Assembly: GCA_022703585.1 (NCBI GenBank)
Contig: JAKLDJ010000001.1
Span: forward strand, 374,891 to 438,890
Direction of reading: 5' to 3'
From: Candidatus Omnitrophota bacterium
GTDB taxonomy: Bacteria; Omnitrophota; Gorgyraeia; Zapsychrales; JAKLDJ01
DNA: 64,000 nucleotides
The notes under the pieces are model-generated. The model was given only the letters and a program-made list of their open reading frames with translations. It was not told the origin of the DNA and made no database searches. Both the position numbers and the translations under genes were made by a program. Below are positions 42,751-58,182 of this stretch, piece by piece (position 1 is the first letter of the stretch; each line of letters starts with the position of its first letter).

Positions 42751-42798
42751 ACAACCGAAAAAAGATAATAAAAAGCCTATTAATCAAAGACTCTATAA

Positions 42799-42960
42799 TC
42801 CGTGGCTTTTGAGTTCTTGTTTGCACTGTCCTTTTCTCCGTGGCTTTTGCTGCTTTTTGATACTCGAAAAAAAGATAGGCTGCCGAATCCTCGACGGTTT
42901 CGGCAGCCCGAACTACATCACTTAAAAAAACAAATGTTTTTTAAGTTTTCCGTGGCTTTG
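42799..42960. promoter_or_regulatory. Three direct copies of TCCGTGGCTTT(T)G in the intergenic leader upstream of the giant gene; candidate transcription-factor sites.
   Basis: tccgtggcttttg at 42799-42811 and 42837-42849, and tccgtggctttg at 42949-42960. A related copy ccccgtggctta lies at 54189-54200, upstream of the flp pilin array. Confidence 0.3.
42865..42908 (-). terminator. Intrinsic-terminator-like hairpin plus U-tract on the minus strand, between tadC and the giant gene.
   Basis: ggctgccgaa (42878-42887) pairs perfectly with ttcggcagcc (42899-42908) around an 11-nt loop. On the minus strand the stem is followed by UAUCUUUUUUUCG (revcomp of cgaaaaaaagata, 42865-42877). Confidence 0.5.
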
Positions 42961-43721
42961 CTCACTTCGTAATCTTTCTTTTGGAAGTTCGCCTTTATCG
43001 TTCCGTCTGCAATTTAAATATATCATATAGTATATGGTTGTCAAGCCGGCAGCACCGGCCTAAAACACCCAATCATCAAGCACATCAATGACTTACGTAA
43101 TTGGCGAAAGAATTTTAAATTTTTTTAGAAAATTTTTCCAAAGCCGCTTTCTTTGCGGAGATTTTTGCCTTTTTTATACGGCATGCCGATTGGATTTGAT
43201 CATGATTTCCGCATTCGTCACCATGGGAAATACGGCGTTTTTTAAGAAAGCGATCGCCTCAAAATGACCCGATAAGATATTTTTCCGTCGGAAGCAATGT
43301 TATTTCCGTCGGAGAATGTAAGAAATCTTCTTGGGCCAATCAAATGAGAGAAAGAAAAAAGACGGACAGAAGGCCGGCTCCGCAACTCTTGAATTTAAAA
43401 TGCACGGCTTGAACGCCCTCACGCGCGCATCAAAAAACATGCATCAAGAGAATAAAAACGGAAAAATATACACAGAGCCTGGAGGAAAATATGCCCGGCC
43501 CCGGAAGAGTTTATTTCTTGCGGATTTTCGGGTAGAGAGATATTTAAGAAGATGGGCTTTAGAAATCAGCTGAAACTATTGAAGATTATGCCTTGGTTTC
43601 TTTCTTTGGACATTTCTATACGAATTTTTTATAAATTGGACATTATAATTCGGGATTTCCTGTTGAATTTAGCACAGAAAATGTCCATACTAAAGCAGTT
43701 ACCGATTGGCGCCTAAATGTT

Positions 43722-44720
43722 TTATTTTACACCCAATTGTCTCATTGGATTATTGTTGGTAAAATCGAGGAAAATAGGGGCGCCGACAAGAATGGCGACA
43801 ACGGGGAAAATACAAAACAAGAGCGGGACCAGCATCTTCATGGGAGCCTTAAGGGCAATTTGTTCGCCTCTCCTAAAGCGGGCCACGCGCATATCTTCCG
43901 AAATGATAGTCAGGGCCTCCGCCACCGAAGTACCCATGCGGTCAGCCTGAATAAGAGTGCGGGTAAATGTGGTTAAGTCCGGCAATTCGTATTTTTTTCC
44001 TAAGTCGGCTAAAGCAACCCTTCTGGGTTTGCCGACATTAATCTCCTGCATGATTAAATTCATCTCGTCAATTAAGACCGAGGGCTTCGATTTGTCGACA
44101 ACCCACTTGAGAGCCAGCATAAAATCCAGCCCGGCATTAACGCACAAGCCCAAAAGGTCGATGGTGTCGGGAAGTTCTTTGACAATAGACTCTTTGATTT
44201 TCTTCGTCCTGGCCTTAAGCCAAAACTCCGGTACCAAATAACCGAAACAAAAACCAAAACCCGCCCAGGCAAATATCATATCCGGCTTTATAAGCCTGAA
44301 GGTAAGGGCCAGCACCGCGGCCATGCATAATTCTTTTATGAGAAAAAATCCTTCCGGGGTAAGGTCAAGCTTGGCAATATTAAGGTCCCTGGCCATTCTT
44401 TTTCCCAAAGGGCCGAGGGTAAAGGGCCGGTTAAACATCGAAAAATGCCGGAATGCCGTCGAGAGGGTGGATCTTTTTTTCTTGTCAATCTTGACCTCGG
44501 GCTCGACATTAAGCGGCTGCAAACGCAGGCGCGTCGTCGGCGTCTCAAAGGGCGCGAAAAAAAGAACCAGGCAGATAACAGAAAGAAAAACAAATCCTAA
44601 AATAATGGCGAGCATAGGCTCCTTATATAAGACCGAATTGACCCTGCTTCGCCAAATACTTAACATGTTTGGCTTCGCAGGGTTATACCCCCTACCTCTT
44701 TGTTTCGCTTCGCTACACAA
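43722..44720 (-). CDS. tadC: TadC-like Flp pilus assembly inner-membrane protein (T2SS F-domain family).
   Basis: 332-aa ORF with a polytopic membrane profile and a C-terminal GspF/TadC-type region (...LIQADRMGTSVAEALTIISEDMRVARFRRGEQIALKAPMKMLVPLLFCIFPVVAILVGAPIFLDF). Sits directly downstream of the tadB-like gene. Confidence 0.75.
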   Translation of the reverse strand: MCSEAKQRGRGYNPAKPNMLSIWRSRVNSVLYKEPMLAIILGFVFLSVICLVLFFAPFETPTTRLRLQPLNVEPEVKIDKKKRSTLSTAFRHFSMFNRPFTLGPLGKRMARDLNIAKLDLTPEGFFLIKELCMAAVLALTFRLIKPDMIFAWAGFGFCFGYLVPEFWLKARTKKIKESIVKELPDTIDLLGLCVNAGLDFMLALKWVVDKSKPSVLIDEMNLIMQEINVGKPRRVALADLGKKYELPDLTTFTRTLIQADRMGTSVAEALTIISEDMRVARFRRGEQIALKAPMKMLVPLLFCIFPVVAILVGAPIFLDFTNNNPMRQLGVK

Positions 44721-44739: not shown

Positions 44740-45597
44740 TTAAAACTCCTTAAACGTACTGATCCTCCATATCATAAAAACGCCCAAGACCTCCAGGAAA
44801 ACAGCCAGAATAAGAAGCATTCTCCCCACATCAGAATTAATCAGCTGGTCAAAGAAATTTTTGTTGGAAGAAGTGACCACGGCCGCAAAGGCAATGGGCA
44901 GGATCGACATGACCACTCCCTGGATTTTCCCCTGAAGGGTCAGATTATCGATATTTTGCTTAATCTTTTTGTTTTCCCGTATGGTGGTAACAATGCGGCT
45001 AAAAATAACAGGCAGGTTGCCGCCGGTTTCTCGGGCCAAAAGAATCGCGGTAATCATATGGTGCAGCGCCGTCGAGGGCATCCGGCTGTAGAGGCGCGCA
45101 AATGATTCTTCCAGGGAAATCCCCATTTTGTTTTCGCCTAAAAGGGTCCCGAATTCCTGGCTGACGGGAGCGGGCATTTCTTCTTTGACCACCTCCAGGG
45201 CCTGGATTAAGCTTAAGCCTCCTTTTAAAGAGCTGGATAAAATCATCAGGGTGTCTACCAGCTGGTCTTCGAATTTGGCGGTGCGCTTTTGGGTCAAGAA
45301 TTTAACATAGACGCTGGGCGCCAAAAATCCGACGACAGCGCCGGCGACAACCCCTAAAAGCTTGATCTCGGCAGGAAACGCCATAAATCCGGTAACAGCC
45401 AAAATAATGGGCCCGACCGTGTAAAAGAGTATGACACGCCTGACCCGGACCTTGATAAACATCTCATCCATGCGTTCGGCAAGTTCCCGGGAACGTCTTT
45501 TATTCATCTCTTCGATGTTTCCGTAGATGGGGGGAATGACCGAAAAAGAGAATACGGCCACGGAACCGAATATCAACAGCATGATAATAAGCCACAT
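44740..45597 (-). CDS. tadB: TadB-like Flp pilus assembly inner-membrane protein (T2SS F-domain family).
   Basis: 285-aa ORF with N-terminal TM helices and a T2SSF-like core (...LGENKMGISLEESFARLYSRMPSTALHHMITAILLARETGGNLPVIFSRIVTTIRENKKIKQNIDNLTLQGKIQGVVMSILPIAFAAVV...). Paired with the tadC-like gene, 19 nt apart. Confidence 0.75.
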   Translation of the reverse strand: MWLIIMLLIFGSVAVFSFSVIPPIYGNIEEMNKRRSRELAERMDEMFIKVRVRRVILFYTVGPIILAVTGFMAFPAEIKLLGVVAGAVVGFLAPSVYVKFLTQKRTAKFEDQLVDTLMILSSSLKGGLSLIQALEVVKEEMPAPVSQEFGTLLGENKMGISLEESFARLYSRMPSTALHHMITAILLARETGGNLPVIFSRIVTTIRENKKIKQNIDNLTLQGKIQGVVMSILPIAFAAVVTSSNKNFFDQLINSDVGRMLLILAVFLEVLGVFMIWRISTFKEF

Positions 45598-45642: not shown

Positions 45643-46047
45643 TTAGTTACATTGTGGATTTGCACAAGGGGTCACGCAATACTCGTTACAATGCTCCTCG
45701 CAGCAGTCGGCATTATGTCCGCACGCCGTGTTGGGGTTAGGGCTATGACTGCCGCAAGGATTCCAATTATTATGATCCATGCAATTATGTGCGCATTGAT
45801 CGGAATAGTTCGTATGGCATTGGGGGACATACCACCTTCCCAGGTCTTCGCTCCAGATGCATTCAACCGTTTTTTTAGGGTCGTATTGCATCCCGAAACC
45901 GAAGGAATCGGCTGACGCCTTCCAGCGCCCGGCAAAACCGCGCAGGACATACTGCCGTCCGGCGACAAAAGCCGCGATCAGAATAACGATAAGCATCGTG
46001 TATTCGATCATGGAAGCGGCTCTTTTATTACCTTTACGCATCGTCAT
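45643..46047 (-). CDS. Flp-like pilin paralog with a Cys/His-rich C-terminal extension (12 Cys in the last roughly 60 aa).
   Basis: N-terminus MTMRKGNKRAASMIEYTMLIVILIAAFVAGRQYVLRGFAGRWKASADSFG parallels the xxxxEY plus hydrophobic helix plus RGIQGRWK pattern of the flp array genes. C-terminus ...CHTNYSDQCAHNCMDHNNWNPCGSHSPNPNTACGHNADCCEEHCNEYCVTPCANPQCN. The start overlaps the stop of the upstream TadG-like gene (TAATG), indicating translational coupling. Confidence 0.55.
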   Translation of the reverse strand: MTMRKGNKRAASMIEYTMLIVILIAAFVAGRQYVLRGFAGRWKASADSFGFGMQYDPKKTVECIWSEDLGRWYVPQCHTNYSDQCAHNCMDHNNWNPCGSHSPNPNTACGHNADCCEEHCNEYCVTPCANPQCN

Positions 46048-49000
46048 TAAAATTCGTCACTGCACCTTGAAAATTTGACGTTAAACCCGTACGGGTCCTC
46101 CTGGTGAAAGAAGTACTCCGCGCAGGTTTTACTCATTACGCCCCGGTAGAGAAAGTGGCGTACAATATTATAACACGCCGTTATCTCCGGCGGATCGGCA
46201 ACATCATTAATCATAAAAGCACCCTGATTACCGGGATCACACGCGGCTTCCAGTTGCGTAATACGTTCCGGGGTAATGCTGTCCCGGTCCGCGTGGTGGG
46301 CAATAAAGCGCCAGATAGGAACCTTGTTGGCAAACGTCAAAAGGGCGTCTTTGTCCTCGTCATAGCGGATAACGCGGGATTTGACCGCGCCGCCCCTGAA
46401 ACAAACTCTGGCATTGCTGCCTTCATGATACTCCCCGGGTTCATCGCAAGCGCTATTGGGCGCTCCGTCGGAGTATTGGTCAAAACTATCTCCCAGGGTA
46501 TAGCATTTGCGCGTACCCCAGTTTTTAGTATAGGTCTTAATCCACGGCCAACTCGGCTCATGGGTATAGCCCTGAGATGCCCTCGCACATTTTCCGTTGC
46601 ATCGGGTGGGCAAGCGCGCCTCAACCTGCACAATATGCCAGTAGCCTTTCCCGGCAAACTGCCCGGGCCGCGGCGTCTCCGGAGGGTCACTGCGCCAGGC
46701 GTAAATCGCGTATGGGGCCAGGTCCGCGTCGTCCTCAGGATTCACATTGACTCTGTTATACTCAGTCGTAACACCCGTGACTGCGGGACTGTTAACAAAA
46801 GTATGAAATGCGTCTCTATAGCGGTTGAGGGTGGCGATAACGCTGGTGACATTATTAATTGTCCTGTCCAGAAAATCCGCACGAAAACGATGCATGGCGG
46901 CCTCATTCGCCTCGCCATGCCAGTACTCCTGTACACACGCCAACTCAGCAGCCTGACAGGAGCCGCTTAAGTTGCATGGGTTTCGGAGCGAATAGCAGGC
47001 CGGATAGCTGTAGTTGCAATGAGCATAACAGTCGGCGTATTGGTTCGCAGTAGTATCATGCGCCGGAGCCCTGGTATTGCGATGGCAATCGGCGATCTGA
47101 CTAATTGTGCGGGCGGGGTTGTAATTCGGGTTACATTCGTAACTACTATTTCCGTGATAACTACGATTAGCCCAATCCGAAAGAGTATTGCTCCATTCAT
47201 TAAAAACACTGCCCGAACTCCCGTAATCGTCCAATACCCCGCCAGGCCCTACCCAGGAAAGAAATTCCGGGTACCAGGATAGAAATGACCTCGCAAGTTC
47301 GTCGGATCCTTGCGCCAATATCCCTAAACTCCAAGAAGTAAAATCGGTGAGACTGCGGCGAAGCAAATCGGCCTCATCTTCGCTCCAAAGAACCTTGTAG
47401 TACCGCTCGGGCCACGTCCCCGGGATGCTCTCGCATTCGTTACTATAAATCGAACAGATCCCGGCCGACTCTGTACATGAGGTGCAGGTCCTATCGCACT
47501 CCTTTCCCGGACAGGGGGTGCTGTAGGGCCAGTTGTCGTCATCTTTGGTGCAGTATTGGACATCACCTCTTTTCCACCATCCCGGGGGATACGTTGATTC
47601 ACCGGGACATTTTAGGACTTCATTTCCGTCAGGGGGAACAACGGGTTTTCTTATTCCTGACGCGTTGGGAACATTATCAAAAGTGCTGGGTACAAAACAG
47701 GTAAGCGGCGACGCATTATCACATGCGTAGGGGAGCTCGAGATGGCCCACCGCGGCATAGGGAAAATCATTATTATTGCAGTAGGCATAGGTGTTATTCC
47801 AGACATATTGCGGTGTAGCCCAATAGCAAAAATCAACATAATGCTCAAATTCATCATAGATAGCGCTAAAATCAAGGCTTGCCCTGGCTGCCGCGTCCCA
47901 TAGCGTCGGGAAAAATGCCCCTTTCAGGTCATCGCGCCTGAAACGAAAAGGATGCGTGGTGCGGTCCAAAATCTGCGGCCCGTTAGGATTGAGCGGGTTT
48001 GTCCTGTAATACGGTGTTTCATCGTCGTGGCCAAGAAACTTTCTAAAAGACAAGAAACCGATATTCGGGTCTTCATGGAGGGCATTAAAGACGTACGGAT
48101 AACCGCCCGTAGAATACCCGCCAGCAATATTGGGATAGATACCGGAACAGTTTGCTGAGCTGCCGCAAGAGGGCGTAGCGGGATCGGGACAATCAGAACC
48201 GCCATCGCAACAGCACGGCCTCACGTTTGGCGGAACACAGCAGCGATTGCATTCAGCGGGAGGATTGGCTCCGCAACAAGCGCTTGCATGCTGCGGAGGA
48301 ACGGGCGCTGTGGTTTCGGAACAATAAATCAGGGTAGGATCCGCAACCGCAAAAAGGTCGGTGTGCACGACCCGTACCGGCTCAGGGGGCGGATTAGGAG
48401 GAACCGTGGGCGGCTGTTCATAGTATATGTACGGCTCTAAGAGAAACGCCCCCAGGGCCCTCTGGAAATCCTGCAATATGTCACGATTGAGGATGCGCCT
48501 GTTCGCAAATTTTGCGTTCATCCGCTGGGTGTAAAAATACCCGAAACGGTTGACCTCTTCGTTGAGTATACCGTCCATGTCGATGTCTTTGGTGTCGAGA
48601 AGCTCGCTGGTATCATCAACGCTATATTGAAGAGCCATCTGAATTCCGCGTTCGACAAATTGGTCTGCCGGCGTCTCAAGCTGTGCCATTTGTTTATTCC
48701 ATAAGGAATTCATACCGGGCTGAAGGACAAGCGCCTGGAGCAGAATGGAACCAACCGAGAGAATCAGAAAGATAATTCCTTTAGCGGTAGCAAATGCCGC
48801 AAAGGTAAGCGTCCCTCCGGAAGTAATGGAAATAACAGTGGCAATGACAAGAATGATGAGGGCTAGTACTGCCGCTGCGACTCCTGTCCATCCGCAGACG
48901 GTTAAATCATCTCCGGCGTTAGGGTCGGGATTTCCCTCGGGCCCGCCCAACTGGCCCTGATAAACACTTTCGGCATAGCTGGCCATACCCGAGGCCAAAA

Positions 49001-49298
49001 AAGCGGCGCTGATATTGGAGGCCATGGTCACCTGGGTTTTTGTCTGCGAGATTCTGCCCAGGTTGAGAACCACGGCATAAAAGATAAATAAAATCGCCAC
49101 CATCACAATCAGCAATAGGGCTACCTGACCCGCCTCGGCTCCCCCTCCATCGCTTCGCGACGAGATCTCGGCGAAGCCGGACCTCGTCGAGCTTGCCCTG
49201 AGTCCCTCGATTTTGCTCGGGATAAACTTCGTCGAGGCTGGGCCGGTTCGACTTGAGGATAAAATCTTCTTTGTTATTTTGTTTAAAAAGCTAAGCAA
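46047..49298 (-). CDS. Giant TadG-like pseudopilin or tip-adhesin candidate, 1083 aa, with a cysteine-rich ectodomain.
   Basis: The N-terminal segment ...GAEAGQVALLLIVMVAILFIFYAVVLNLGRISQTKTQVTMASNISAAFLASGMASYAESVYQGQL matches the TadE/TadG N-terminal helix pattern. The remainder is Cys-dense (for example CCGANPPAECNRCCVPPNVRPCCCDGGSDCPDPATPSCGSSANCSG) with many aromatic residues. Confidence 0.65.
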   Translation of the reverse strand: MLSFLNKITKKILSSSRTGPASTKFIPSKIEGLRASSTRSGFAEISSRSDGGGAEAGQVALLLIVMVAILFIFYAVVLNLGRISQTKTQVTMASNISAAFLASGMASYAESVYQGQLGGPEGNPDPNAGDDLTVCGWTGVAAAVLALIILVIATVISITSGGTLTFAAFATAKGIIFLILSVGSILLQALVLQPGMNSLWNKQMAQLETPADQFVERGIQMALQYSVDDTSELLDTKDIDMDGILNEEVNRFGYFYTQRMNAKFANRRILNRDILQDFQRALGAFLLEPYIYYEQPPTVPPNPPPEPVRVVHTDLFAVADPTLIYCSETTAPVPPQHASACCGANPPAECNRCCVPPNVRPCCCDGGSDCPDPATPSCGSSANCSGIYPNIAGGYSTGGYPYVFNALHEDPNIGFLSFRKFLGHDDETPYYRTNPLNPNGPQILDRTTHPFRFRRDDLKGAFFPTLWDAAARASLDFSAIYDEFEHYVDFCYWATPQYVWNNTYAYCNNNDFPYAAVGHLELPYACDNASPLTCFVPSTFDNVPNASGIRKPVVPPDGNEVLKCPGESTYPPGWWKRGDVQYCTKDDDNWPYSTPCPGKECDRTCTSCTESAGICSIYSNECESIPGTWPERYYKVLWSEDEADLLRRSLTDFTSWSLGILAQGSDELARSFLSWYPEFLSWVGPGGVLDDYGSSGSVFNEWSNTLSDWANRSYHGNSSYECNPNYNPARTISQIADCHRNTRAPAHDTTANQYADCYAHCNYSYPACYSLRNPCNLSGSCQAAELACVQEYWHGEANEAAMHRFRADFLDRTINNVTSVIATLNRYRDAFHTFVNSPAVTGVTTEYNRVNVNPEDDADLAPYAIYAWRSDPPETPRPGQFAGKGYWHIVQVEARLPTRCNGKCARASQGYTHEPSWPWIKTYTKNWGTRKCYTLGDSFDQYSDGAPNSACDEPGEYHEGSNARVCFRGGAVKSRVIRYDEDKDALLTFANKVPIWRFIAHHADRDSITPERITQLEAACDPGNQGAFMINDVADPPEITACYNIVRHFLYRGVMSKTCAEYFFHQEDPYGFNVKFSRCSDEF

Positions 49299-49361: not shown

Positions 49362-49625
49362 CTACCATTTGTTGAAAACCAAGTTTAAAGGGGTCGGTTT
49401 GGAAAAATTCGTTCTCAGCTGTCTTAACGGGCCTTCGCCCTCATTCTCCCAATTCTCGTTGATACCCATATTCAGAGTAGTTTCGTGGGCGACCTGACGC
49501 TCGGATAGGCTTAACCCCACCCAGCGAAATGCCATGATGCACCCGTAAAAAATCAGAAGCAGGACAACAAAAGCAAACGTGAATTCGATGATAACCTGCG
49601 CGTCATGTTGTTTAGAGTTTTTCAT
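49362..49625 (-). CDS. tadE: TadE-like minor pseudopilin (87 aa).
   Basis: MKNSKQHDAQVIIEFTFAFVVLLLIFYGCIMAFRWVGLSLSERQVAHE... shows a TadE-like N-terminal hydrophobic helix after a charged leader. Confidence 0.6.
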   Translation of the reverse strand: MKNSKQHDAQVIIEFTFAFVVLLLIFYGCIMAFRWVGLSLSERQVAHETTLNMGINENWENEGEGPLRQLRTNFSKPTPLNLVFNKW

Positions 49626-49684: not shown

Positions 49685-51115
49685 TTACTTAAATGGATTC
49701 TTATCCGTACTGACATCCGTCACCCATTTTTTCTTAGCCCGGTCCTCAATTTTACTTCGTATGTGAAGAATTTTAGTGCTTCGGTCAAAACAAGTCTTAA
49801 AAACATTGTCATTGCTATAGCAACAACTCCCCGCATCGCAGCAGGCTTCAACCGGATTGCTGCCGTTACACATACGCCCTGTATCATTGCTGAGCTGTAT
49901 CTGCCGCTCGATAACCTCAATGCTATCCTGTTTCCGGGTCTGACGGACATACTGCCTGGTGTCGGGGGTAAAAAGCTTGCCTTCTTCTACCCGAAGATAT
50001 GTACCGGTATCCCCGGGGCCGGCCGGCTTGCCATAAACATACAAAAATGATTCCGGTTTCAAGCCCGGCTGAGGCTTACCGTTTTGCCTATCGCGCGTGT
50101 CATAGGTATTATCAATATCGCCTTCTTGCTGGTCAATAACTGTAACCTCCTTAAAAGCCGCATGGAACATGGCGCCAGACCGGACAAGGTTGTGGTATCC
50201 CTCCGCTCCTTCGTCACCTACAAACCAATCGATTGTCTCCGGGATGGGCTCTTTAAGAGTATATGTAAAGTTGTTTGTATCGACCATGCGGACAATGGAC
50301 TCTTCCTTAAGATCTCCGTCAACATCCAGGGATGTATTCTTGCCGTCATTAAAATCAATTTCCGAGTTGGTCATAGGGATGGCGTACCACTCCCAGGTAA
50401 ACTCGTCTGTTTGAGCCGGTTCGACATCCATCCCCGCAGTACATCCGACGGCAGCACATTGGGTCAGGGTGTTGCGGTCCAAATTAAACCTGTCTTCCAG
50501 GGTATTTCGAGTATCGCCGGTTGCCAGAGGTGAACATCCAAAGGGATTCAAGCTGCAAAAATTGTCGTCACCATAAACTATTCTCGTATATGCCTTTGCG
50601 CAATTTATTGCGCCCCCGCTAGGGCCATTTCCACAGCCGGCAGAGTCTGATATGATTATCGGAGTGGGCAGGCTACCGCAAAATCCAGTCACAAAATTAC
50701 AAGTTTTAAACTGGGCAGTCGTAAAGGTAAAATGCTGGCCGTTGATAAAAACATCCATGATGGAAAGGTTTTCGGGGTGGTCATGCTGGGTGGGCATAAA
50801 AAGATTATTGGTAAAAGCCCCCGCCCCGCTGGTCACAAAAGGCATACGCGACGAAGTTAAATACCGGCCGCTACTTGAGACATCGGCGTCTTTTCTGTCT
50901 TCGATATATAGGATGCTGGAAAACATCCGCGAGGCGTTTCCCCCGGTGCCGGACCGAAAAGACTGCTCAAAAGCCAGCCGCATGGCCCCCAGCGCCTGGT
51001 TTTGGGCATAATTAAAATTAAGCGCCATGCGAATAATCAGGCCCAAAACAAAAATCAGGATAGCCCCGAAAATCGCGAGTTCGGAAGCCGTCTGACCTTT
51101 GGGAATGCATTTCAT
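49685..51115 (-). CDS. TadE/TadG-like pseudopilin, 476 aa, with a Cys-rich extracellular domain.
   Basis: N-terminus MKCIPKGQTASELAIFGAILIFVLGLIIRMALNFNYAQNQALGAMRLAFEQSF is TadE-like. The body contains CNFVTGFCGSLP, AGCGNGPSGGAINCAKAY, FCSLNPFGCSP and CAAVGC motifs, and the tail has EACCDAGSCCY. Confidence 0.6.
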   Translation of the reverse strand: MKCIPKGQTASELAIFGAILIFVLGLIIRMALNFNYAQNQALGAMRLAFEQSFRSGTGGNASRMFSSILYIEDRKDADVSSSGRYLTSSRMPFVTSGAGAFTNNLFMPTQHDHPENLSIMDVFINGQHFTFTTAQFKTCNFVTGFCGSLPTPIIISDSAGCGNGPSGGAINCAKAYTRIVYGDDNFCSLNPFGCSPLATGDTRNTLEDRFNLDRNTLTQCAAVGCTAGMDVEPAQTDEFTWEWYAIPMTNSEIDFNDGKNTSLDVDGDLKEESIVRMVDTNNFTYTLKEPIPETIDWFVGDEGAEGYHNLVRSGAMFHAAFKEVTVIDQQEGDIDNTYDTRDRQNGKPQPGLKPESFLYVYGKPAGPGDTGTYLRVEEGKLFTPDTRQYVRQTRKQDSIEVIERQIQLSNDTGRMCNGSNPVEACCDAGSCCYSNDNVFKTCFDRSTKILHIRSKIEDRAKKKWVTDVSTDKNPFK

Positions 51116-51179: not shown

Positions 51180-51494
51180 TTAGTACCCAAACACCTTCAT
51201 GGAGCCGTCTTGCCGCTCGACGGAGCTGGAATCATCATACCGGTTCGTCCAAAATTGGCCTGCCCCTTGCTGGACCGTGATCCTGGTCTGAGAATTTTGC
51301 TCCATGGTATACAAAATATTCGTTGTCGTATTGGTACTGTCGTACTGATCGCCTAAGTCCTCAACCGAGGCCTTCCACCGCCCCTGGATAGCCCGCTTAA
51401 GATACACCCCTCCGACGATGAGGGCCCCCATGACCACGATTAATAAAATAGCATATTCGGTTAGAGACTGGCCGTTTTTTCTTATCCGCAGCAT
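51180..51494 (-). CDS. flp: Flp-family pilin paralog (104 aa).
   Basis: MLRIRKNGQSLTEYAILLIVVMGALIVGGVYLKRAIQGRWKASVEDLG carries the class-III prepilin motif G/QSLTEY followed by a hydrophobic helix. Confidence 0.65.
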   Translation of the reverse strand: MLRIRKNGQSLTEYAILLIVVMGALIVGGVYLKRAIQGRWKASVEDLGDQYDSTNTTTNILYTMEQNSQTRITVQQGAGQFWTNRYDDSSSVERQDGSMKVFGY

Positions 51495-51515
51495 TCCTAT
51501 CCCTCTTAAGTTTCT

Positions 51516-51860
51516 TTATTCCTGGTTAACAACACCGCCCTTGGTAACCGCGTTAGCGCGCGTCCGGGCCACGTCCCGGTAGAGGTATTCCAGGGAAGTG
51601 ACACCTTTTGTTTCCCGGACCTCTTTGGTCGAGCGCCCCCGCCTGTCACTAAATGTCCCCAACAGATAGCTTTTTTCCTCGTCCACTTCCTGATCGGCGT
51701 TGCTTTGCTGGCCCAGCTGGTCGGCGGTTACCTTGACGATAGATTGTATCCCGCGTTTGACCAAAGGCTGCATGGCCGCCAGCGCCACGGCAACGATGCC
51801 GATCAAGATGATGTATTCCGATATCGTTTGGGCCTCTTTTTGTTCTTTTAAAATAAACAC
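51516..51860 (-). CDS. Flp-like pilin paralog (114 aa; A instead of G at the cleavage position).
   Basis: MFILKEQKEAQTISEYIILIGIVAVALAAMQPLVKRGIQSIVKVTADQLG has the same architecture with AQTISEY. Confidence 0.5.
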   Translation of the reverse strand: MFILKEQKEAQTISEYIILIGIVAVALAAMQPLVKRGIQSIVKVTADQLGQQSNADQEVDEEKSYLLGTFSDRRGRSTKEVRETKGVTSLEYLYRDVARTRANAVTKGGVVNQE

Positions 51861-51880
51861 ATGTACCCCGTCAAAATTCC

Positions 51881-52270
51881 TTAACGCGCATCCTTGGGCG
51901 GCAACTGGATACTGTTGGTAACAACCGCTGTCCTGTCTTTATAGACCTGCTCATAAGTAAATCCTTCCCACGGATGCTTATACACATTAAGCTGCCGGGT
52001 AGAATCCCGGGTTACGTCAGAGGCAGATTGGGTATAATAAGGCTCATATTCTTTAGGGATTCTTGCGGGCGTTTGGGCCGTAGCATTCCGCGTCTGAACG
52101 TAGGCATCGTTGGCTTTGGTGATCATATAGTCTTTTGTGTCTTTGATGCGGGCCTGGATGGACCTCTTAACAATTGCTGTTACGGCCATAATGACGGTCA
52201 CCGCTAACGCAACGGTGACGGTGTATTCGTTAATGATCTGGGCTTTGCGGTTTTTTATCGGTCTGGGCAT
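51881..52270 (-). CDS. Flp-like pilin paralog (129 aa).
   Basis: MPRPIKNRKAQIINEYTVTVALAVTVIMAVTAIVKRSIQARIKDTKD shows the AQIINEY motif plus a hydrophobic helix. Confidence 0.5.
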   Translation of the reverse strand: MPRPIKNRKAQIINEYTVTVALAVTVIMAVTAIVKRSIQARIKDTKDYMITKANDAYVQTRNATAQTPARIPKEYEPYYTQSASDVTRDSTRQLNVYKHPWEGFTYEQVYKDRTAVVTNSIQLPPKDAR

Positions 52271-52389
52271 ATTCTCTACTGAATATTATATTATTTTTAA
52301 AGAAATCCGGAGTAAAAAAATAAAAGCTTTTAGAAATGCCGGCCGGTCTCATTCGTTGTTGCCCGCAAATAGTATTTGGCGTTTGCTGC

Positions 52390-52424
52390 TTTGGGTGGGC
52401 GGCCCTAAGGGCCGCCCACCCAAA
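52390..52424. promoter_or_regulatory. Perfect 16-bp-stem, 3-nt-loop palindrome between two pilin genes; an attenuator or RNA-stability stem-loop (no U-tract follows).
   Basis: tttgggtgggcggccc taa gggccgcccacccaaa lies 87 nt downstream of the stop of the 52511..52837 pilin gene and upstream of the next pilin gene. Confidence 0.5.
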
Positions 52425-52510
52425 CCGATTTATCCTTATCTCCTTTTTAAAAAAAACTGGCTTACCCAAAAAGCGAGGCTTCCCGGGTAAGCCAGTCTTT
52501 GGGGATCTTT

Positions 52511-52837
52511 TTACCTACCCCAGTATTCGCCTCCAGCTGCGTTCATAATAAACTGATTCCTGAAGATGTTGGTAGTTTCGTTCCCGACAATCGTTGAGCT
52601 TTGCACACCTCTGTTAAAGGTCTCTCTCGTCGAGGAAGACGTTCTGGTAACCTTATTCATGAACGTTTCCATGGTAGAGTACTGCTCGCCGATGTTATCG
52701 GCTGAATCCTTGAAACGGCCCTGAATACCTCTTTTGATGTAGATTTGTATGGATATCAAAGCACCGATAATGATAATAATCAAAATCGCGTATTCTACCG
52801 TGCTTTGTCCTCTGCTTTTCTTTAAGAATTTAAACAT
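52511..52837 (-). CDS. flp: Flp-family pilin paralog (108 aa); candidate major pilin because a strong stem-loop follows it.
   Basis: MFKFLKKSRGQSTVEYAILIIIIIGALISIQIYIKRGIQGRFKDSADNIG has the G/QSTVEY motif. An SD-like GGGAGGTGAA sits just upstream. Confidence 0.65.
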   Translation of the reverse strand: MFKFLKKSRGQSTVEYAILIIIIIGALISIQIYIKRGIQGRFKDSADNIGEQYSTMETFMNKVTRTSSSTRETFNRGVQSSTIVGNETTNIFRNQFIMNAAGGEYWGR

Positions 52838-52903
52838 CTTTTGTTCACCTCCCTTTTAGTAACGGGTATTCCCCGTTGTTCACCTAAGCCTATAGAGAAC
52901 ACC

Positions 52904-53257
52904 CTATTCCAGGACCCCGTTATAGGCGAAGTTCTGGTAACCAGAACGTTTAATGTTCATGTCGCTAACGTACTGAAGACCCGTCGCCGCCCTAGCGTTT
53001 TGGAATTCTGTATCCACCGCCTCGCGTCCAACGTTAAAATCGGTCGTCAGGTACCCGGGTTCAAACTGGCTGGTATTACCTATGCCTTCACCGCTACCTT
53101 GGTTAACCAGGTATTTTGAGGCATCGTAAATCCTGGCCTGCAACGTCCTTTTGGCATACTGCTGCATGGCAATAACCGCAGCCACGACCAGAGCGATAAG
53201 AATCGCGTATTCGGCCGTGCTTTGTCCTCTTTTTCTATTTCTTAGCTTTCTAAGCAT
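52904..53257 (-). CDS. flp: Flp-family pilin paralog (117 aa).
   Basis: MLRKLRNRKRGQSTAEYAILIALVVAAVIAMQQYAKRTLQARIYD has the G/QSTAEY motif. AGGAGGTGAAAA lies upstream (revcomp of 53262-53273). Confidence 0.65.
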   Translation of the reverse strand: MLRKLRNRKRGQSTAEYAILIALVVAAVIAMQQYAKRTLQARIYDASKYLVNQGSGEGIGNTSQFEPGYLTTDFNVGREAVDTEFQNARAATGLQYVSDMNIKRSGYQNFAYNGVLE

Positions 53258-53299
53258 CGATTTTCACCTCCTAATAAATGACACGTTAAATACTTCCTT

Positions 53300-53494
53300 T
53301 TAATGGGAACCTTTGAGACGATTAGCCATATTCTCCATCCCCTGGCTGGCATCCTGATACGTCGAGTTGAGCGCGGTTCTAAACACCCCGCTGGGCTTTA
53401 GAAACACGATCAGAATCGCGATAACACCGGCCACTAGGATGAGATACTCCATCGTGCTTTGACCTCTTTTTCTACTTCTTAGCTTTCTAAGCAT
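53300..53494 (-). CDS. flp: Flp-family pilin (64 aa, canonical size).
   Basis: MLRKLRSRKRGQSTMEYLILVAGVIAILIVFLKPSGVFRTALNSTYQDASQGMENMANRLKGSH has the G/QSTMEY motif. AGGAGGTGAAAATCA SD lies upstream. Confidence 0.7.
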   Translation of the reverse strand: MLRKLRSRKRGQSTMEYLILVAGVIAILIVFLKPSGVFRTALNSTYQDASQGMENMANRLKGSH

Positions 53495-53552
53495 TGATTT
53501 TCACCTCCTAAACAAGAGTTTATGCTACCCCTCACTTGAGCAGGAATACTGC

Positions 53553-53711
53553 TTAATTCCTGTCAAACTCCTCCTCAATCGTTTTCTGGGTCGCTTGAAC
53601 CGAACGATACACGTAGGTGCTCATCGCGATTAACGCGGCTGAAACCAGGGCAATAATAACGGCATATTCGATTAGGTTTTGTCCTCGTTTATTTTTTATC
53701 GAATGCCGCAT
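53553..53711 (-). CDS. flp: Flp-family pilin (52 aa), absent from the supplied ORF track because it is under 60 aa.
   Basis: Hand translation gives ATG at 53711..53709 and stop TAA at 53555..53553, producing MRHSIKNKRGQNLIEYAVIIALVSAALIAMSTYVYRSVQATQKTIEEEFDRN. The G/QNLIEY motif is present. It is the first gene of the tandem pilin array. Confidence 0.6.
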   Translation of the reverse strand: MRHSIKNKRGQNLIEYAVIIALVSAALIAMSTYVYRSVQATQKTIEEEFDRN

Positions 53712-54065
53712 GCCGCCCTTTTTTCGCACCTCGCCTGACAGAAAACGAGTTTCGCCCCTTCCTTCGAAGCCCGGTAATCTTTGGCCTTCACAAATTCGGG
53801 AGCTTTATTTGTCCCGCCTGAAACCGCGGAACCCATGCGTCTTTCTTTGTTTATACGGCCGATAACGGCGGTAAAGAAAAACGCGCGGATTAAACACCCG
53901 ACCTAATCCCTTGTTTGTCGTTTATGGATTTTAGCTCAAAAAATAAAAACGGCCGACGAAACAACGGTTAAGGACATGGTGTTGAAATCTTTGCAAAAAT
54001 TGTCAAGACTTCGATTTCTCGACGATGAATCTCGACGCCGCGCCCGACCGGCGCCCAACAGTACT

Positions 54066-54103
54066 GAAAAATAAAAAATCCTTAGGGAGACAAAGCCCTA
54101 AGG
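54066..54103 (-). terminator. Intrinsic-terminator-like hairpin plus U-tract downstream of the 978-aa gene (minus strand).
   Basis: ccttaggg (54080-54087) pairs with ccctaagg (54096-54103). On the minus strand the stem is followed by AUUUUUUAUUUUUC (revcomp of gaaaaataaaaaat, 54066-54079). Confidence 0.4.
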
Positions 54104-54437
54104 AGCTAGAGAATCCTTTTTAAAGGAAACCTCGTTTCAACAAGGATGTGCGCTTTTAAGATATTGATTTTTAATAACCTCATTATTTCCCCGTGGCTTA
54201 AGAAATAATGGCCTATTTCTCAGCAAAAAAGTTAAGTGTTTGCGATAAACGCGCGGAAGCCTAAGAAAAGCTCTTAGCCGCATTACAAATATAACATATA
54301 TAAAACAAGGGGTCAAGAATATCTGAGGAAGATTTTGAGGTAGGGGTTTCCAGACGCATTTTACAAACAGGGATTTCCTGGCGCCCGGCAAGGGCTAACA
54401 CAATACCCGGCAAGAGCTTCTGTCATTCTCTTGTCTC

Positions 54438-57374
54438 TTACCCGCCGATACTGACAATCAGCCGGGTATTCGAATAATCGCGGATATTGCTTTCATTGAG
54501 CCGCCTGAGCGCATATTCCAGGTCCTTGCGGTAAGCGTAGCCCTCGGGAATGACCAGTTGAACCATACAATAGCCCTGTTTCTTAAAAATACGCCCCGGA
54601 AGATCATAAAACCTTTGTTTTACCGTCGGAAAATTCAATTGTTCATAGTGGGGCGGGAAAAAGTGCCTCTGGCAGTAATTGTTAATTGCCGAAAGAAGGA
54701 AATCGATTGCACGCCAAATATCACCGGAGCCATCCAGCAGATTATAGCAGCCATCCCCTTCCAGCAAGGGGACCTTGTCCGGGGATGGAATCATGCTCAC
54801 CGCCCCGTAGGAGGCCTTTTCTGCTTTGGCGCTAAAATCATTATAGCCTTCCTGAAAATTCGGCCAGTGCGTCAGGTACCGGGTAATGATCTCTTCGGTG
54901 TCCATGTCCTGGGCCGGAATATTGGTCACCACCGCCATCACCGGCCAGTCCAAGCCCGTTTCGCGTAAAAGGGCCACCCGTACGCTAACGGACTGGCCCG
55001 CGACCGGCTGGCCCAGGGAAGTCTTCAGTTCGCTGTAATAGATTTCTTTGTTCAGCCCATCATGGAAGAAGTGTTTAATAAGGCGTATGTCCTCGTCGAT
55101 GAACTTCTTGCATTCCTCCTGCCACGGCCATGCCCCGACGGCAAAATACCGCTTTTTCTTGGGGATCGTGCTGAAATGGGCGATTTCGTTCTTTTGGGTG
55201 TCAAAGATAGCCATCCTAGCGATGCTCTTTCCCGGCATGTCTTCAAAGGCCCACATCATTTCGTAAAACTGTTTTGCGAAACTCTTGTATCCGGGGATAT
55301 GGCTTAAGAAAACCGGCTGGGTATTGCCGATAAAGTTTTCGGAAAGATACACCAGGGATTTATTTAAAGGCACGGTAAAAATGGAATGAACGGCGTTTTC
55401 CGGCCAGAGTGTTTTGAGTTGTCCGTCGACAAAAATAGACACGCTATCGGCCAAGCTCATCTTAAGATAGCTGGTTTCGGAGAAAATCTGAGTGTATTCT
55501 TGGGTTGTGGTCAAGGCCAGGCTTTTGGAGACTTGCAGACCGTCCTTTAATTTTGCCAGCATCTCATAGGTTAATTTCTTTTGCAGATTATTCACCATCC
55601 AGAGGCCCGGCTGGTCATAATTCTTCATATCTTCGAGATTGTTGATACCGAAAGCTTTTAGATGCTGCAATACCTCGCCGGCTACGCTGATATCAAAAGG
55701 GAGGTATCCGCTGGTATATTTTCCTAAAATACCGCCCAGGATAGGCGAGTTGGAGAGCTCCCATTCGGCCGCCTTCAGGAAAAAGGATCCCATGTGATCA
55801 TATAGAATATTTTCCTCGTCGGAGAGGGCCGCCGAGGGCACCTTTTTCTTAAGAAAAATGGTGGAATCCGGTGTCCAGATTTTATCTTCGACATAGGCCC
55901 GGTTGGGGTCAAAAGACTGGGACGGCTCGGGGGCTTTCTCTTTCTTGGCCATCTCCGGCGATTTTATCTCCGGCGCCTGCGGTGGCGGCATAGAGGTGGG
56001 AATCTCGACGGACGGGGCTGTCTCTTTGGCTGCCGTATCACGGGAGAGTTCAAAATCCGGTTTTTGTTTTTCCTTTTTTTCAGCCGGAATTTCGGGGATA
56101 ACCTCGGGAGGAATCTCCCCGGCGACCGGTTTTTCTTTTGTCATATCCAGCAATTCGGCATCCAGGATTGACGGCTGTTCCGATAACGGCTCCGGGGTAA
56201 CGGCTGCCGGCGGTGGCTCCGGCGGCGGAATAATCTCTTCCCCAGACTTTTCTACCGCGGGAGGTTCGGGAGCAATCTCCTTTTTCGGTTCTTCTACTGC
56301 GGGAGGTTGTGTCATCGATGCCGTGTCGGCAGGCAAAGGTGCTTGCTCTTTCTCTTTTTGCCCTTCCTCAGGTCCTTCTTCTTTAACCGGCTCCGGCACT
56401 AAAGTGGGCGCGGGTTCTTCGGGAGCCGATTCTACCTGAGCCAGCGGATCGGGCATTAAACGCAGCGACGGCTCAGCTTCCCGGCTTGATTCTTCCTCTA
56501 TTTTTTCCTTGTCCTCGTCGGAAGAAAGTGTTACTGCGGGCGATTTTTCGGGCAGCGTGGGCAGCTCTTGTTTCTCATCGACCAAAGGAACAGGCGGTGT
56601 TGTTTGTTGTTCCGGAATTTCTTCTTGCGATGGCACCGGTAAAGACGCCGGCTCTTCGGTTTTCCCGGAAGGCGTTTCTGCCGGTTTCTTCTCGATTTCT
56701 GCCGACGCTTCTTCGCGGGATTCAATTGCGCTTTCTTCCGGTACAACCGAAGGCTCTTTTTCCTTAAGGAGAGCTGTTTCTTCTATTATAGGGGGCAAAG
56801 GCAATTCCTGCTTATCCCCCGGCGAAACTTCCGGCAGGACACTATCGGCAATCTTAGCATCACCCGCCACAGATTGTTTTTCTCCTGATAAAGAAACAGG
56901 CTCCTCTACTTTCTCCTGTTGAGGCTCAACTTTTTCGTTTACCCCTGATTCTTCTTTGGACAATTGTTCCGGTTCTTTAGGCGGAGCAGACAGCACGATG
57001 ATTTCTTCCTTTTTGGGCGGTTGCTGCCCAGGCGTAATGACCAGAGGCAAATCTTTCTTTGTTTCCGGAAGCTTTAAGGCTTCCTCTTTATAGGCAGGCA
57101 GAAGATTTTCCTGAAGGCTGGTTAGTATCTGGGCTTTTCGCTCTTCGGGAATCTTGAATTTTTGGGATTTCTTTGAGGATTCTGATTTTCTGCCGACGGG
57201 ACTGCTTAAATTGGCCTGCTTGATAACGGTATTAACGGCGGATTTTGAAACATCGACCTGGAATTTATCCTTGACGATCTCGGCTATCTTGCGGCAGCTA
57301 AGCCCCTCATCCAGGCGCTTTTGGCTGATGATAAAATCAATAACTTCTTGCTTAAGCTTATAAACAACACCCAT
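54438..57374 (-). CDS. Hypothetical 978-aa protein: N-terminal HTH-like domain, roughly 430-aa Pro/Glu/Lys-rich low-complexity linker, and an uncharacterised roughly 480-aa C-terminal globular domain.
   Basis: N-terminus MGVVYKLKQEVIDFIISQKRLDEGLSCRKIAEIVKDKFQVDVSKSAVNTVIKQ is helix-turn-helix-like. The middle is PEKS-rich (...EPPPAAVTPEPLSEQP...). The C-terminal region has no motif I can name. Embedded in the Tad cluster. Confidence 0.7.
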   Translation of the reverse strand: MGVVYKLKQEVIDFIISQKRLDEGLSCRKIAEIVKDKFQVDVSKSAVNTVIKQANLSSPVGRKSESSKKSQKFKIPEERKAQILTSLQENLLPAYKEEALKLPETKKDLPLVITPGQQPPKKEEIIVLSAPPKEPEQLSKEESGVNEKVEPQQEKVEEPVSLSGEKQSVAGDAKIADSVLPEVSPGDKQELPLPPIIEETALLKEKEPSVVPEESAIESREEASAEIEKKPAETPSGKTEEPASLPVPSQEEIPEQQTTPPVPLVDEKQELPTLPEKSPAVTLSSDEDKEKIEEESSREAEPSLRLMPDPLAQVESAPEEPAPTLVPEPVKEEGPEEGQKEKEQAPLPADTASMTQPPAVEEPKKEIAPEPPAVEKSGEEIIPPPEPPPAAVTPEPLSEQPSILDAELLDMTKEKPVAGEIPPEVIPEIPAEKKEKQKPDFELSRDTAAKETAPSVEIPTSMPPPQAPEIKSPEMAKKEKAPEPSQSFDPNRAYVEDKIWTPDSTIFLKKKVPSAALSDEENILYDHMGSFFLKAAEWELSNSPILGGILGKYTSGYLPFDISVAGEVLQHLKAFGINNLEDMKNYDQPGLWMVNNLQKKLTYEMLAKLKDGLQVSKSLALTTTQEYTQIFSETSYLKMSLADSVSIFVDGQLKTLWPENAVHSIFTVPLNKSLVYLSENFIGNTQPVFLSHIPGYKSFAKQFYEMMWAFEDMPGKSIARMAIFDTQKNEIAHFSTIPKKKRYFAVGAWPWQEECKKFIDEDIRLIKHFFHDGLNKEIYYSELKTSLGQPVAGQSVSVRVALLRETGLDWPVMAVVTNIPAQDMDTEEIITRYLTHWPNFQEGYNDFSAKAEKASYGAVSMIPSPDKVPLLEGDGCYNLLDGSGDIWRAIDFLLSAINNYCQRHFFPPHYEQLNFPTVKQRFYDLPGRIFKKQGYCMVQLVIPEGYAYRKDLEYALRRLNESNIRDYSNTRLIVSIGG

Positions 57375-57580: not shown

Positions 57581-57805
57581 ATGAAGAAATGTCCTTACTG
57601 TTTTGAAGAAGTCCGGGAGCCTGTCGCCAAATGCCCCCACTGCGCCCAGTTTGTTATCGATGACTTCATCGAATCCGACTATCGCAGCATTGACAAAAAA
57701 AGATGCATTTTCTGCGGCAAGAATATTCTCGCCGAAGCCAAGGTATGCAAACACTGCCGCAAATGGATCAATACAGTTGATGACGCGATTAAAGATATGG
57801 AGTAG
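57581..57805 (+). CDS. Small double zinc-ribbon protein (74 aa).
   Basis: MKKCPYCFEEVREPVAKCPHCAQF...RCIFCGKNILAEAKVCKHCRKW contains two CxxC-x(n)-CxxC pairs. It is the only plus-strand gene in the cluster and is divergent from the 978-aa gene. Confidence 0.5.
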   Translation: MKKCPYCFEEVREPVAKCPHCAQFVIDDFIESDYRSIDKKRCIFCGKNILAEAKVCKHCRKWINTVDDAIKDME

Positions 57806-57837: not shown

Positions 57838-58182
57838 TTATTCCCCGAGCTTGATTAAATCTCCGATGGCAGTGCAGGAACGTTTGATAGTCCCGGCGGG
57901 AACTTCAATCACAAAATTTGCTTTTAAAAAAACAGGGCTGAGCCTAAACGGCCTTAAGTTCTCGGTTAATCCCACCACATAATTTCTCTCGTCGACAAAT
58001 AGCGCATCGATTGCAAATCGCATAAAAAACATGTGAATGGAACAGCATCTCGGGATCACCAGGCCCTCGCCTTCTTTAAGACAGGCGCGGCCCAAAAGAC
58101 CCTTGGCCCTCGCCCAAAAACCTTCTGCCAACTCGCCTTCTCGGGCAATAAAAGTATTTTTGCTTACGTTACGAATCTGCAT
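57838..58182 (-). CDS. DUF192-family protein (114 aa).
   Basis: ...ARAKGLLGRACLKEGEGLVIPRCCSIHMFFMRFAIDALFVDERNYVVGLTENLRPFRLSPVFLKANFVIEVPAGT matches the DUF192/COG1430 pattern (GLM-R, sIHM, LD-lF-D). Confidence 0.6.
   Translation of the reverse strand: MQIRNVSKNTFIAREGELAEGFWARAKGLLGRACLKEGEGLVIPRCCSIHMFFMRFAIDALFVDERNYVVGLTENLRPFRLSPVFLKANFVIEVPAGTIKRSCTAIGDLIKLGE

Follow-up and report, generated by a model that had tools for sequence, protein, structure and literature searches.

A tandem array of Flp-like pilin genes, most of them long-tailed, in a Tad locus of an Omnitrophota bacterium

The window analyzed here, 64,000 nucleotides (nt) of contig JAKLDJ010000001.1 from a Candidatus Omnitrophota bacterium, carries at 51180-53711 an array of seven tandem pilin open reading frames (ORFs), P1 to P7, all on the minus strand and encoding proteins of 52, 64, 117, 108, 129, 114, and 104 amino acids (aa). 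The products are prepilin-type proteins of Flp descent, and the genes lie in a Tad (type IVc pilus) locus; the set includes members of a large family with a conserved added tail, and the paralogs are individually conserved. Considered together, the gene content, the conservation, and the expression signals make it likely that the array constitutes the subunit repertoire of a Tad-type filament machine of this bacterium. An earlier reading made from the sequence alone had already placed and sized the seven ORFs correctly, and its core proposal of tandem Flp-like pilins stands; it missed the wider context, namely, the Tad machine, the eighth and ninth paralogs, and a giant gene.

A long-tailed branch of the Flp pilins

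Alignment of the N-termini of P1-P7, the check that the sequence-only reading had itself named, reveals in all seven a basic leader, the motif [G/A]-Q-x3-E-Y, and a hydrophobic helix of ~20 aa, with the Glu and Tyr invariant. Position -1, the last residue of the predicted leader, is Gly in five of the seven and Ala in P5 and P6, and Gln occupies +1 throughout. One further element of the pattern claimed for the whole array, K-R-x-[IL]-Q, is confined to five of its members; P1 has Y-R-S-V-Q and P2 lacks the motif. The array genes and an eighth paralog are the following.

P1, 53553-53711, minus strand: short Flp-like prepilin of canonical size, 52 aa, with the leader MRHSIKNKRG and a mature part of 42 aa; an alternative GTG start at 53729 would give 58 aa.
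P2, 53300-53494, minus strand: short prepilin, 64 aa; AGGAGGTG ahead.
P3, 52904-53257, minus strand: long-tailed, 117 aa, QYEPYY subgroup (SQFEPGY in P3); AGGAGGTG ahead.
P4, 52511-52837, minus strand: long-tailed, 108 aa, GEQY(S/D)P subgroup; GGGAGGTG ahead; the last gene before a terminator.
P5, 51881-52270, minus strand: long-tailed, 129 aa, Ala at -1 (AQIINEY), EYEPYY motif; weak Shine-Dalgarno site.
P6, 51516-51860, minus strand: long-tailed, 114 aa, GTG start, Ala at -1 (AQTISEY).
P7, 51180-51494, minus strand: long-tailed, 104 aa (GDQYDS).
P8, the eighth paralog, 45643-46047, minus strand: 134 aa, Ala at -1 (AASMIEY), Cys-rich tail.

Thus, two of the three Ala copies that had been attributed to the array, P5 and P6, do belong to it; the third, AASMIEY, is P8 and lies outside the range given for it. 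A ninth paralog of 335 aa, with the motif AQSMIEY and a Cys-rich tail, is found just past the window end, upstream of a rotamase gene (L088:8714-9721). A regular-expression scan in six frames returned nine matches to the N-terminal motif in the 64-kb window, all on one strand and within 8.4 kb (45.6-53.7 kb), and these are P1-P7, P8, and an 87-aa TadE-like ORF. In 100 shuffled windows the motif occurred 0.02 times on average and never more than once.

Existing family models capture these proteins to different degrees. P1 scores 31.8 bits against Pfam Flp_Fap (PF04964), just under the gathering cut-off of 32.2, and P2-P7 have no match to that model at E<=1 in the Pfam scan. Against Pfam Class_IIIsignal (PF04021; cut-off 23.7 bits), P2 passes at 26.6 bits, and P3 (18.6) and P1 (11.7) are below. 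P4-P7 have no match in the Pfam or NCBIfam scans, and none of P1-P7 matches TadE (Pfam PF07811). The G-F-T-L-x-E N-methylation motif is absent from the aligned pilins, and the Pfam and NCBIfam scans gave no match to a type II secretion pseudopilin beyond noise.

Profile comparison relates the long proteins to the Flps as a whole. When a profile of the long family was compared by hhalign with 37 canonical Flps of 50-75 aa drawn from Tad loci of other phyla, the two aligned with a probability of 97.8% (E 7.5e-13), and the 52 aligned columns take in a complete Flp. Because the match spans that entire length, P3-P7 are read from their sequences as an Flp core with a C-terminal addition, a tail of 50-75 aa. 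The identification of the array as Flp-like prepilins, as originally proposed, is therefore upheld by this homology, by the Pfam scores of P1 and P2, and by the Tad setting. The proposal that most copies exceed the canonical Flp in length is upheld by a comparison with 78 loci of Tad type in other phyla, for which the CpaF fusion described below served as the query. Motif-bearing ORFs in those loci are mostly 50-70 aa and present in 1-3 copies; the maximum is six copies, all of 52-66 aa, and the longer motif-bearing ORFs that were inspected have the appearance of TadE/TadF-type pseudopilins.

The long forms belong to a large family. A word-indexed search retrieved 1,093 relatives, the best 120 of which are all 94-133 aa, have no Pfam domain save one stray DUF3290 entry, and, where named, come almost entirely from Omnitrophota; the exception among the named homologs is one metagenome-assembled genome (MAG) labelled Phycisphaerae. 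An exhaustive HMMER search of 1.84 billion representatives of 50% identity clusters yielded 5,305 family matches at E<=1e-3, of which 2,456 reach E<=1e-10; the 150 best, 100-164 aa in length, cover the full profile. The family consensus runs N-K-K-A-Q-x-T-A-E-Y-A-I-L-I-A-L-V-V-A-A-x-V-A-M-Q-x-Y-V-K-R-G-L-Q-G-R-x-K-D ... Q-Y-E-P-Y-Y; the stretch beyond it is rich in Ser, Thr, Asn, and Gln and conserves a Glu, a Gly-Gly, and an Arg. Nearly invariant are Q+1, E5, Y6, M-Q-x-Y-V-K-R-G-x-Q-G, and Q-Y-x-P-x-Y.

The tails of the array had been said to diverge completely, which holds only for pairwise BLAST, where nothing significant is found among the window tails. Profile comparison does relate them, and orthologs retain each type of tail: P4 is 50-70% identical to its full-length orthologs and P3 ~48% identical to its full-length homologs (P0026, 48% over 111 aa), and the homologs of P5 match at ~36% over ~91 aa. 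Profiles of the P4 group and of the P3/QYEPYY group align over 100 columns (99.9%). Since profiles built from the tails of the two groups also align with each other (94.8%, E 5e-8), the tails of the long forms go back to one ancestral module. AlphaFold2 models of P4 and P3, based on alignments of 100-124 sequences, place the alpha-1 helix at residues 12-49 in P4 (predicted local distance difference test, pLDDT, 71-91), followed by four low-confidence strands at 58-97, and at residues 12-53 in P3 (pLDDT 80-97), followed by a tail with pLDDT 45-54.

Two observations concern the DNA of the array itself. P2 and P3 share a 59-nt segment, 95% identical (53216-53274 and 53453-53511), which spans the Shine-Dalgarno site and the leader peptide and points to a recent partial duplication or gene conversion between neighboring pilin genes. 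The apparent loss of P4 in contig L095 is only a difference in gene calling, the DNA being identical.

Individually conserved paralogs in a Tad locus

Pfam matches on its neighbors place the array within a Tad locus, which on the minus strand reads rotamase, RcpC, secretin, TadZ-CpaF, DUF192, a 978-aa protein, P1-P7, proteins of 476, 87, and 1083 aa, P8, TadB, and TadC. This layout recurs in four loci: L009, L089, L090 (labelled Omnitrophota), and L091 (labelled Phycisphaerae). Their common order consists of 2-3 short pilins, 2-5 long ones, a TadE-like protein of 250-340 aa, a second TadE-like protein of ~85 aa, a P8-like protein, TadB, and TadC. Two of the four end at a large or giant gene, where the contig continues. 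Reciprocal best hits between the window pilins and these four loci, computed with the first 20 mature residues left out, give the following orthologs.

P1: three loci (L009, L089, L091).
P3: two loci (L009, L091).
P4: all four loci.
P6: one locus, the 375-aa pilin of L009, with KRGIQ-IVK-SAD in common.
P7: two loci (L009, L091).
P8: two loci (L089, L090), just upstream of TadB.

P2 and P5 have no reciprocal-best ortholog in the four compared loci. Because P1, P3, P4, P6, P7, and P8 have orthologs of their own in distant loci, the paralogs are old and individually maintained. To judge from these sequences, the pattern fits subunits with distinct places in one assembly, in keeping with the original suggestion of heteropolymeric pili or alternative subunits. 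Interchangeable or antigenically varying copies were considered as well and are a misfit with individually conserved paralogs.

The other genes of the locus, in minus-strand order, and the giant gene that follows it are listed below.

62901-63842, minus strand: SurA-like peptidyl-prolyl isomerase (Pfam Rotamase_2 and SurA_N), the first gene of the conserved locus; kept in L007, L090, and L091.
62048-62896, minus strand: RcpC/CpaB (Pfam RcpC).
60353-62014, minus strand: RcpA/CpaC-type secretin (Pfam T2SS-T3SS_pil_N, Secretin, and a C-terminal TonB_C).
58192-60351, minus strand: TadZ (ParA-like) fused to the CpaF/TadA ATPase, 719 aa (Pfam AAA_31/ParA and T2SSE).
49685-51115, minus strand: 476-aa pseudopilin-like protein with the N-terminus GQTASELAIFG, that is, [G]x4E-L and a hydrophobic helix.
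49362-49625, minus strand: 87-aa TadE-like protein (AQVIIEF) with a weak Pfam TadE match, 16 bits against a cut-off of 22.9.
46047-49298, minus strand: 1083-aa Cys-rich protein with a single N-terminal hydrophobic helix.
44740-45597, minus strand: TadB-like platform protein, one Pfam T2SSF domain.
43722-44720, minus strand: TadC-like platform protein, one Pfam T2SSF domain; gene callers start it at 44615 or 44666.
1-42558, minus strand: 5' portion of a giant gene, directly downstream of the Tad locus; its open frame, 14,199 codons with no stop, extends beyond the window.

The 476-aa protein has no Pfam match; its counterparts after the array are of 343 aa in L089 and 254 aa in L090, and it is a probable TadE/TadF-type minor pilin with a large head. 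The 87-aa protein has a counterpart of 85 aa in L089. For the 1083-aa protein, likewise without a Pfam match, a comparable position in L090 is held by a 456-aa protein with the Pfam Tad domain (PF13400), and it is possibly TadG-like. P8 (12 Cys in a tail of 79 aa), the 335-aa ninth paralog, the 1083-aa protein, and the 476-aa pseudopilin at its C-terminus (49685-49800) all have strikingly Cys-rich regions, something unexpected in the surface apparatus of an organism that came from anaerobic digesters.

The core machinery has peculiarities of its own. The fusion of the secretin to TonB_C is found also in L007, L009, L090, and L091; we know of no such fusion in characterized RcpA/CpaC secretins. 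For the TadZ-CpaF fusion, most of the best 80 of at least 600 loci match over both halves, and the phyla among the fusion loci include Firmicutes, Actinobacteria, Chloroflexi, Acidobacteria, and Bdellovibrio. The DUF192 gene (57838-58182) is a conserved accessory gene of the locus, lying beside CpaF in the window and in L007, and just upstream of the pilin array in L009 and L089. A double zinc-ribbon protein of 74 aa is encoded on the plus strand at 57581-57805, within a locus whose other genes all run one way. The 978-aa ORF (54438-57374), which lies between the ATPase gene and the pilin genes, combines a helix-turn-helix-like N-terminus, ~450 residues of Pro/Glu/Lys-rich low complexity, and ~480 aa of C-terminal sequence; no Pfam model matches it.

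Candidate regulatory genes lie on one side of the locus and a presumed regulatory region on the other. Directly upstream (L087/L088 1949-8642) are a 1,710-aa multi-PAS response-regulator/kinase protein and two further two-component genes, which are candidate regulators of the apparatus. At the other end, the 1.1 kb between TadC and the giant gene (42600-43720) are low in GC (~0.42), hold no long ORFs, and presumably constitute the regulatory region of the giant gene. That gene, apparently the longest known from any bacterium, encodes 85,803 aa at full length (ERZ761563 NODE_2, GCA_035453785.1, records labelled Candidatus Omnitrophota) and appears to match the longest ORF reported for Omnitrophota, the 85,804-aa ORF from wastewater of West-Roberts et al.

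The proposed filament and its alternatives

Three predicted elements on the minus strand flank the first part of the array.

54288-54316, minus strand: promoter-like site upstream of P1, TTGACC, 17 nt, TG-TATATT, agreeing with the consensus at 10/12 positions and with an extended -10 TG; a predicted start.
52455-52497, minus strand: intrinsic terminator after P4, a 20-bp stem followed by U8, from a terminator scan.
52391-52425, minus strand: second hairpin past the terminator, a perfect, GC-rich 16-bp stem, unique in the window.

The two hairpins folded together give z = -8.9. As had been observed from the sequence, strong Shine-Dalgarno sites precede several copies: the best in the locus are at P2 and P3 (AGGAGGTG) and at P4 (GGGAGGTG), and those of P1, P5, P6, and P7 are weaker. 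Six public contigs of <2 kb carry P4, with P5 and the rotamase gene missing from all six. Two of them, L005 and L006, were read and are identical to the window over 54267-52435 and 54152-52433, ending 12-14 nt past the U-tract, and L005 begins at 54267, ~10-15 nt downstream of the expected start; as circumstantial evidence, these short contigs resemble assembled P1-P4 mRNA transcripts. On the grounds of the strong Shine-Dalgarno sites, the terminator, and the short contigs, P1-P4 give the impression of a distinct unit with strong expression. A structured leader of ~570 nt (53712-54285, minus strand; z = -4.4), with a terminator-like hairpin and U-run at 54104-54079, separates P1 from the promoter-like site. 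This leader may be an attenuator or other regulatory RNA; an Rfam scan of the leader and terminator region returned noise only.

In the mechanism that we propose, a basic leader of 8-11 residues would be removed after Gly or Ala by a peptidase encoded elsewhere in the genome, leaving a mature N-terminus of Gln+1 ... Glu+5-Tyr+6. The next ~40 residues would form the alpha-1 helix that packs in the filament core, and polymerization would be driven by TadZ-CpaF, TadB, and TadC, through the RcpA secretin. P1 and P2 consist of little beyond the core helix. P3-P7 have, in addition, the conserved junction Y-V-K-R-G-x-Q-G ... Q-Y-[ED]-P and 50-75 residues of hydrophilic, strand-prone tail rich in Ser, Thr, Asn, and Gln, presumably exposed on the filament surface. 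P1-P4, predicted to be strongly translated between promoter and terminator, are probably the bulk subunits. P5-P7, the 476-aa, 87-aa TadE-like, and 1083-aa proteins, and P8 would be made at a lower level by read-through and, by analogy with the Kil pilus of Myxococcus, serve as minor, adapter, or tip subunits.

Several observations weigh against this predicted filament or weaken parts of the proposal. Searches of the window, of the 10 kb upstream (L087, L088), and of the 10-kb flanks of the anchor gene in L007, L009, L089, L090, and L091 returned no prepilin peptidase (Pfam PF01478); cleavage is for this reason assumed, and the location of the peptidase elsewhere is proposed by analogy with KilP in Myxococcus. 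The tails of P3 and P4 are predicted only as low-confidence strands (pLDDT 45-60). Foldseek found no PDB fold match at E<=0.001 for the P4 model, itself a weak one, and the family profile has no PDB sequence match, its single hit being to a geopilin N-terminus at E 1.8. Downstream of the P4 ortholog, L089 has a weak terminator-like hairpin, and the search in L091 turned up nothing. Furthermore, samples 3300019247 and 3300019210 may not be metatranscriptomes, nor the short contigs transcripts.

The main rival is a secretion machine, in which the pilins would be pseudopilins and a short periplasmic pseudopilus would push the giant protein or effectors through the secretin, as in a type II secretion system (T2SS). 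The locus lies directly upstream of giant genes and possesses a secretin, and its many distinct pilin-like genes (8-11) are reminiscent of GspG-K sets; its first describers, in passages of a 2023 preprint, called it type II secretion system-like (10.1101/2023.11.21.568195), and type IV filament machines have given rise to secretion systems several times (PMC6668835). However, the core parts are of Tad type (the TadZ-CpaF fusion, split single-domain TadB and TadC, and RcpC), no scanned locus protein has a Pfam match to a T2SS pseudopilin family or T2SS-specific component, the pilins lack the N-methyl motif, and a substrate of 85,803 aa is hard to square with a piston mechanism. We therefore regard this alternative as unlikely, with the proviso that a secretion role and a pilus role are not mutually exclusive.

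A second alternative concerns the Ala copies P5, P6, and P8, which the sequence-only reading had suggested might be uncleaved or differently processed; they would remain unprocessed and membrane-anchored, or be handled by a different enzyme than the Gly copies. All of them are encoded downstream of the terminator, in the part presumed to be less expressed, and Gly at -1 is strongly preferred by characterized prepilin peptidases, with Ala a documented, acceptable substitute (PMC2913515). Within the family, however, the two residues are about equally frequent (Gly 134/266, Ala 128/266), and they replace each other in 38 of 469 close ortholog pairs (full-length, >=60% identity), the most conserved subgroup included. 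Given these counts and the documented substitution, Ala at -1 is best taken from the sequences as an ordinary state of the family and no mark of non-cleavage. The other leader features, basic -2/-3, Q+1, E+5, and Y+6, are the same in Ala and Gly copies, and the suggestion, which the data do not support, strikes us as highly improbable.

A third alternative would place the pilins outside the Flp lineage, as archaeal-type class III signal peptide (Epd/DUF361) pilins recently acquired from archaea. Their leaders do differ from those of Flps in other phyla: in the long family -2 is basic in 249/267 members, and -3 is basic in 222/267 and never acidic, whereas 65 canonical Flps of other phyla have 23 acidic and 14 basic residues at -2 and 48 acidic ones at -3. 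Gly and Ala are about equal at -1 in the long family, and Gln at +1 is invariant (263/263 members with the cleavage motif found). At the level of sequence, the basic -2/-3 residues and Gln+1 recall the substrates of archaeal FlaK and EppA, those of EppA having short, basic leaders with Gln at +1 and Glu at +5 (PMC3875500). The Epd pilins of Methanococcus maripaludis share these traits and likewise comprise several small and larger paralogs, one of them major and several essential minor ones (PMC3875500). P2 passes the Class_IIIsignal threshold, with P3 just below, and one homolog was named UPF0333 by JGI. Nevertheless, the window pilins have the Tyr+6 and Flp motif that Methanococcus pilins lack, Gln+1 occurs in Gram-positive Flps as well (PMC3875500), and profile homology to bacterial Flps is strong. 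Only P2 passes PF04021; the locus has a bacterial secretin and RcpC, absent from the archaeal hosts of Epd pilins; and the named homologs are Omnitrophota, save the one MAG labelled Phycisphaerae. Tad systems as a whole descend from an Epd-like archaeal system (PMC6668835), and the resemblance fits that ancient origin, which leaves a recent acquisition extremely improbable.

Finally, the notion that the long ORFs are spurious or decaying and that P1 alone is a functional pilin, which draws on the lack of Pfam or NCBIfam matches above cut-off for P3-P7 and on their low-confidence tails, is effectively refuted by thousands of full-length homologs with conserved tails, by syntenic orthologs in distant genomes, by the strong Shine-Dalgarno sites at P2-P4, and by the identity of the array sequence across independent samples; mere chance ORFs are ruled out by conservation together with the motif statistics.

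Known pili and the biology of Omnitrophota

The Tad-type filament that we favor is best placed by comparison with characterized pili. With the canonical Flp of Aggregatibacter (Flp1) and Caulobacter (PilA), the window pilins share the leader, x4-E-Y, the hydrophobic alpha-1, and a locus with CpaF, TadB, TadC, RcpA, and RcpC; P1 and P2 are of canonical size, and profile homology extends over the whole Flp length. Passages of two papers describe canonical Flps as 50-80 aa, fully helical, and without a globular beta domain (PMC12075869; PMC11067988). In contrast, P3-P7 are 104-129 aa, continue past the helix, which ends at about residue 50 in the P3 and P4 models, into a K-R-G-x-Q-G ... Q-Y-E-P junction and a hydrophilic, strand-prone tail, and only P1 comes near the Pfam threshold.

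Another close parallel is the Kil predation pilus of Myxococcus xanthus, composed of a major Flp of 97 aa (KilP), the Flp adapters KilK and KilO, and the TadE/F/G-like tips KilL, KilM, and KilN (PMC12075869). The two systems share a predatory host and a Tad machine with numerous pilin genes (15 in Myxococcus), among them an Flp of more than the usual length, small adapters of Flp type, and large minor pilins resembling TadE/F/G. Some Kil pilins are cleaved by a peptidase encoded outside the locus, as is assumed here. They differ in that the extension of KilP is an alpha-2 helix rather than a Ser/Thr-rich, strand-prone tail, and the Kil pilin genes are scattered in four tip clusters rather than gathered in one array. 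There is no detectable sequence relation beyond the Flp core, and, in place of a partner like the type III secretion system, a giant gene follows the locus here.

Parts of this picture are already known. Seymour et al. assigned Tad complexes to the predatory Velamenicoccia and cited expression in V. archaeovorus (PMC10066038). The same locus upstream of giant genes, with its small class III signal genes, is noted in passages of the 2023 preprint (10.1101/2023.11.21.568195), in which these small genes are not analyzed. The locus, these genes, and multi-pilin Tad pili in predators are thus established. New here, with no earlier description found, are the family of long-tailed Flps (how large it is, the junction and tail it conserves, and the absence of Pfam or PDB relatives), the assignment to Tad rather than T2SS, the ordered and conserved set of paralogs, the leader statistics, and the P1-P4 unit.

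The locus keeps its place directly upstream of giant genes in a lineage of predators, and for this reason we speculate that the filament probably serves prey contact and may help to export or present the giant protein. A bolder version would be a composite predation organelle that Omnitrophota made out of a Tad machine, with a heteropolymeric filament of about eight specialized Flp-derived pilins and a novel outer sheath of conserved Ser/Thr-rich tails, dedicated to the export, anchoring, or deployment of the giant protein (up to 85,803 aa) encoded next to it. We consider this version decidedly unlikely; if true, it would represent an independent evolution of a protein-delivery system from the Tad lineage.

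Tad pilins have been regarded as minimal type IV pilins with one helix and no head, and this family is a break from the Flp rule. The presence of about eight syntenic paralogs per locus, several with their own orthologs, points to a Tad filament more elaborate than any so far described, and the array belongs to a machine conserved beside the giant genes of predatory, ultra-small Omnitrophota. Being small, probably abundant, and surface-exposed, the pilins are good targets for finding the organelle by proteomics, antibodies, and cryo-electron tomography, and they offer a way into prey attachment and the handling of megadalton proteins. The family, with at least 2,456 clusters at 50% identity, has no Pfam model, and a model of it would rename thousands of "hypothetical proteins."

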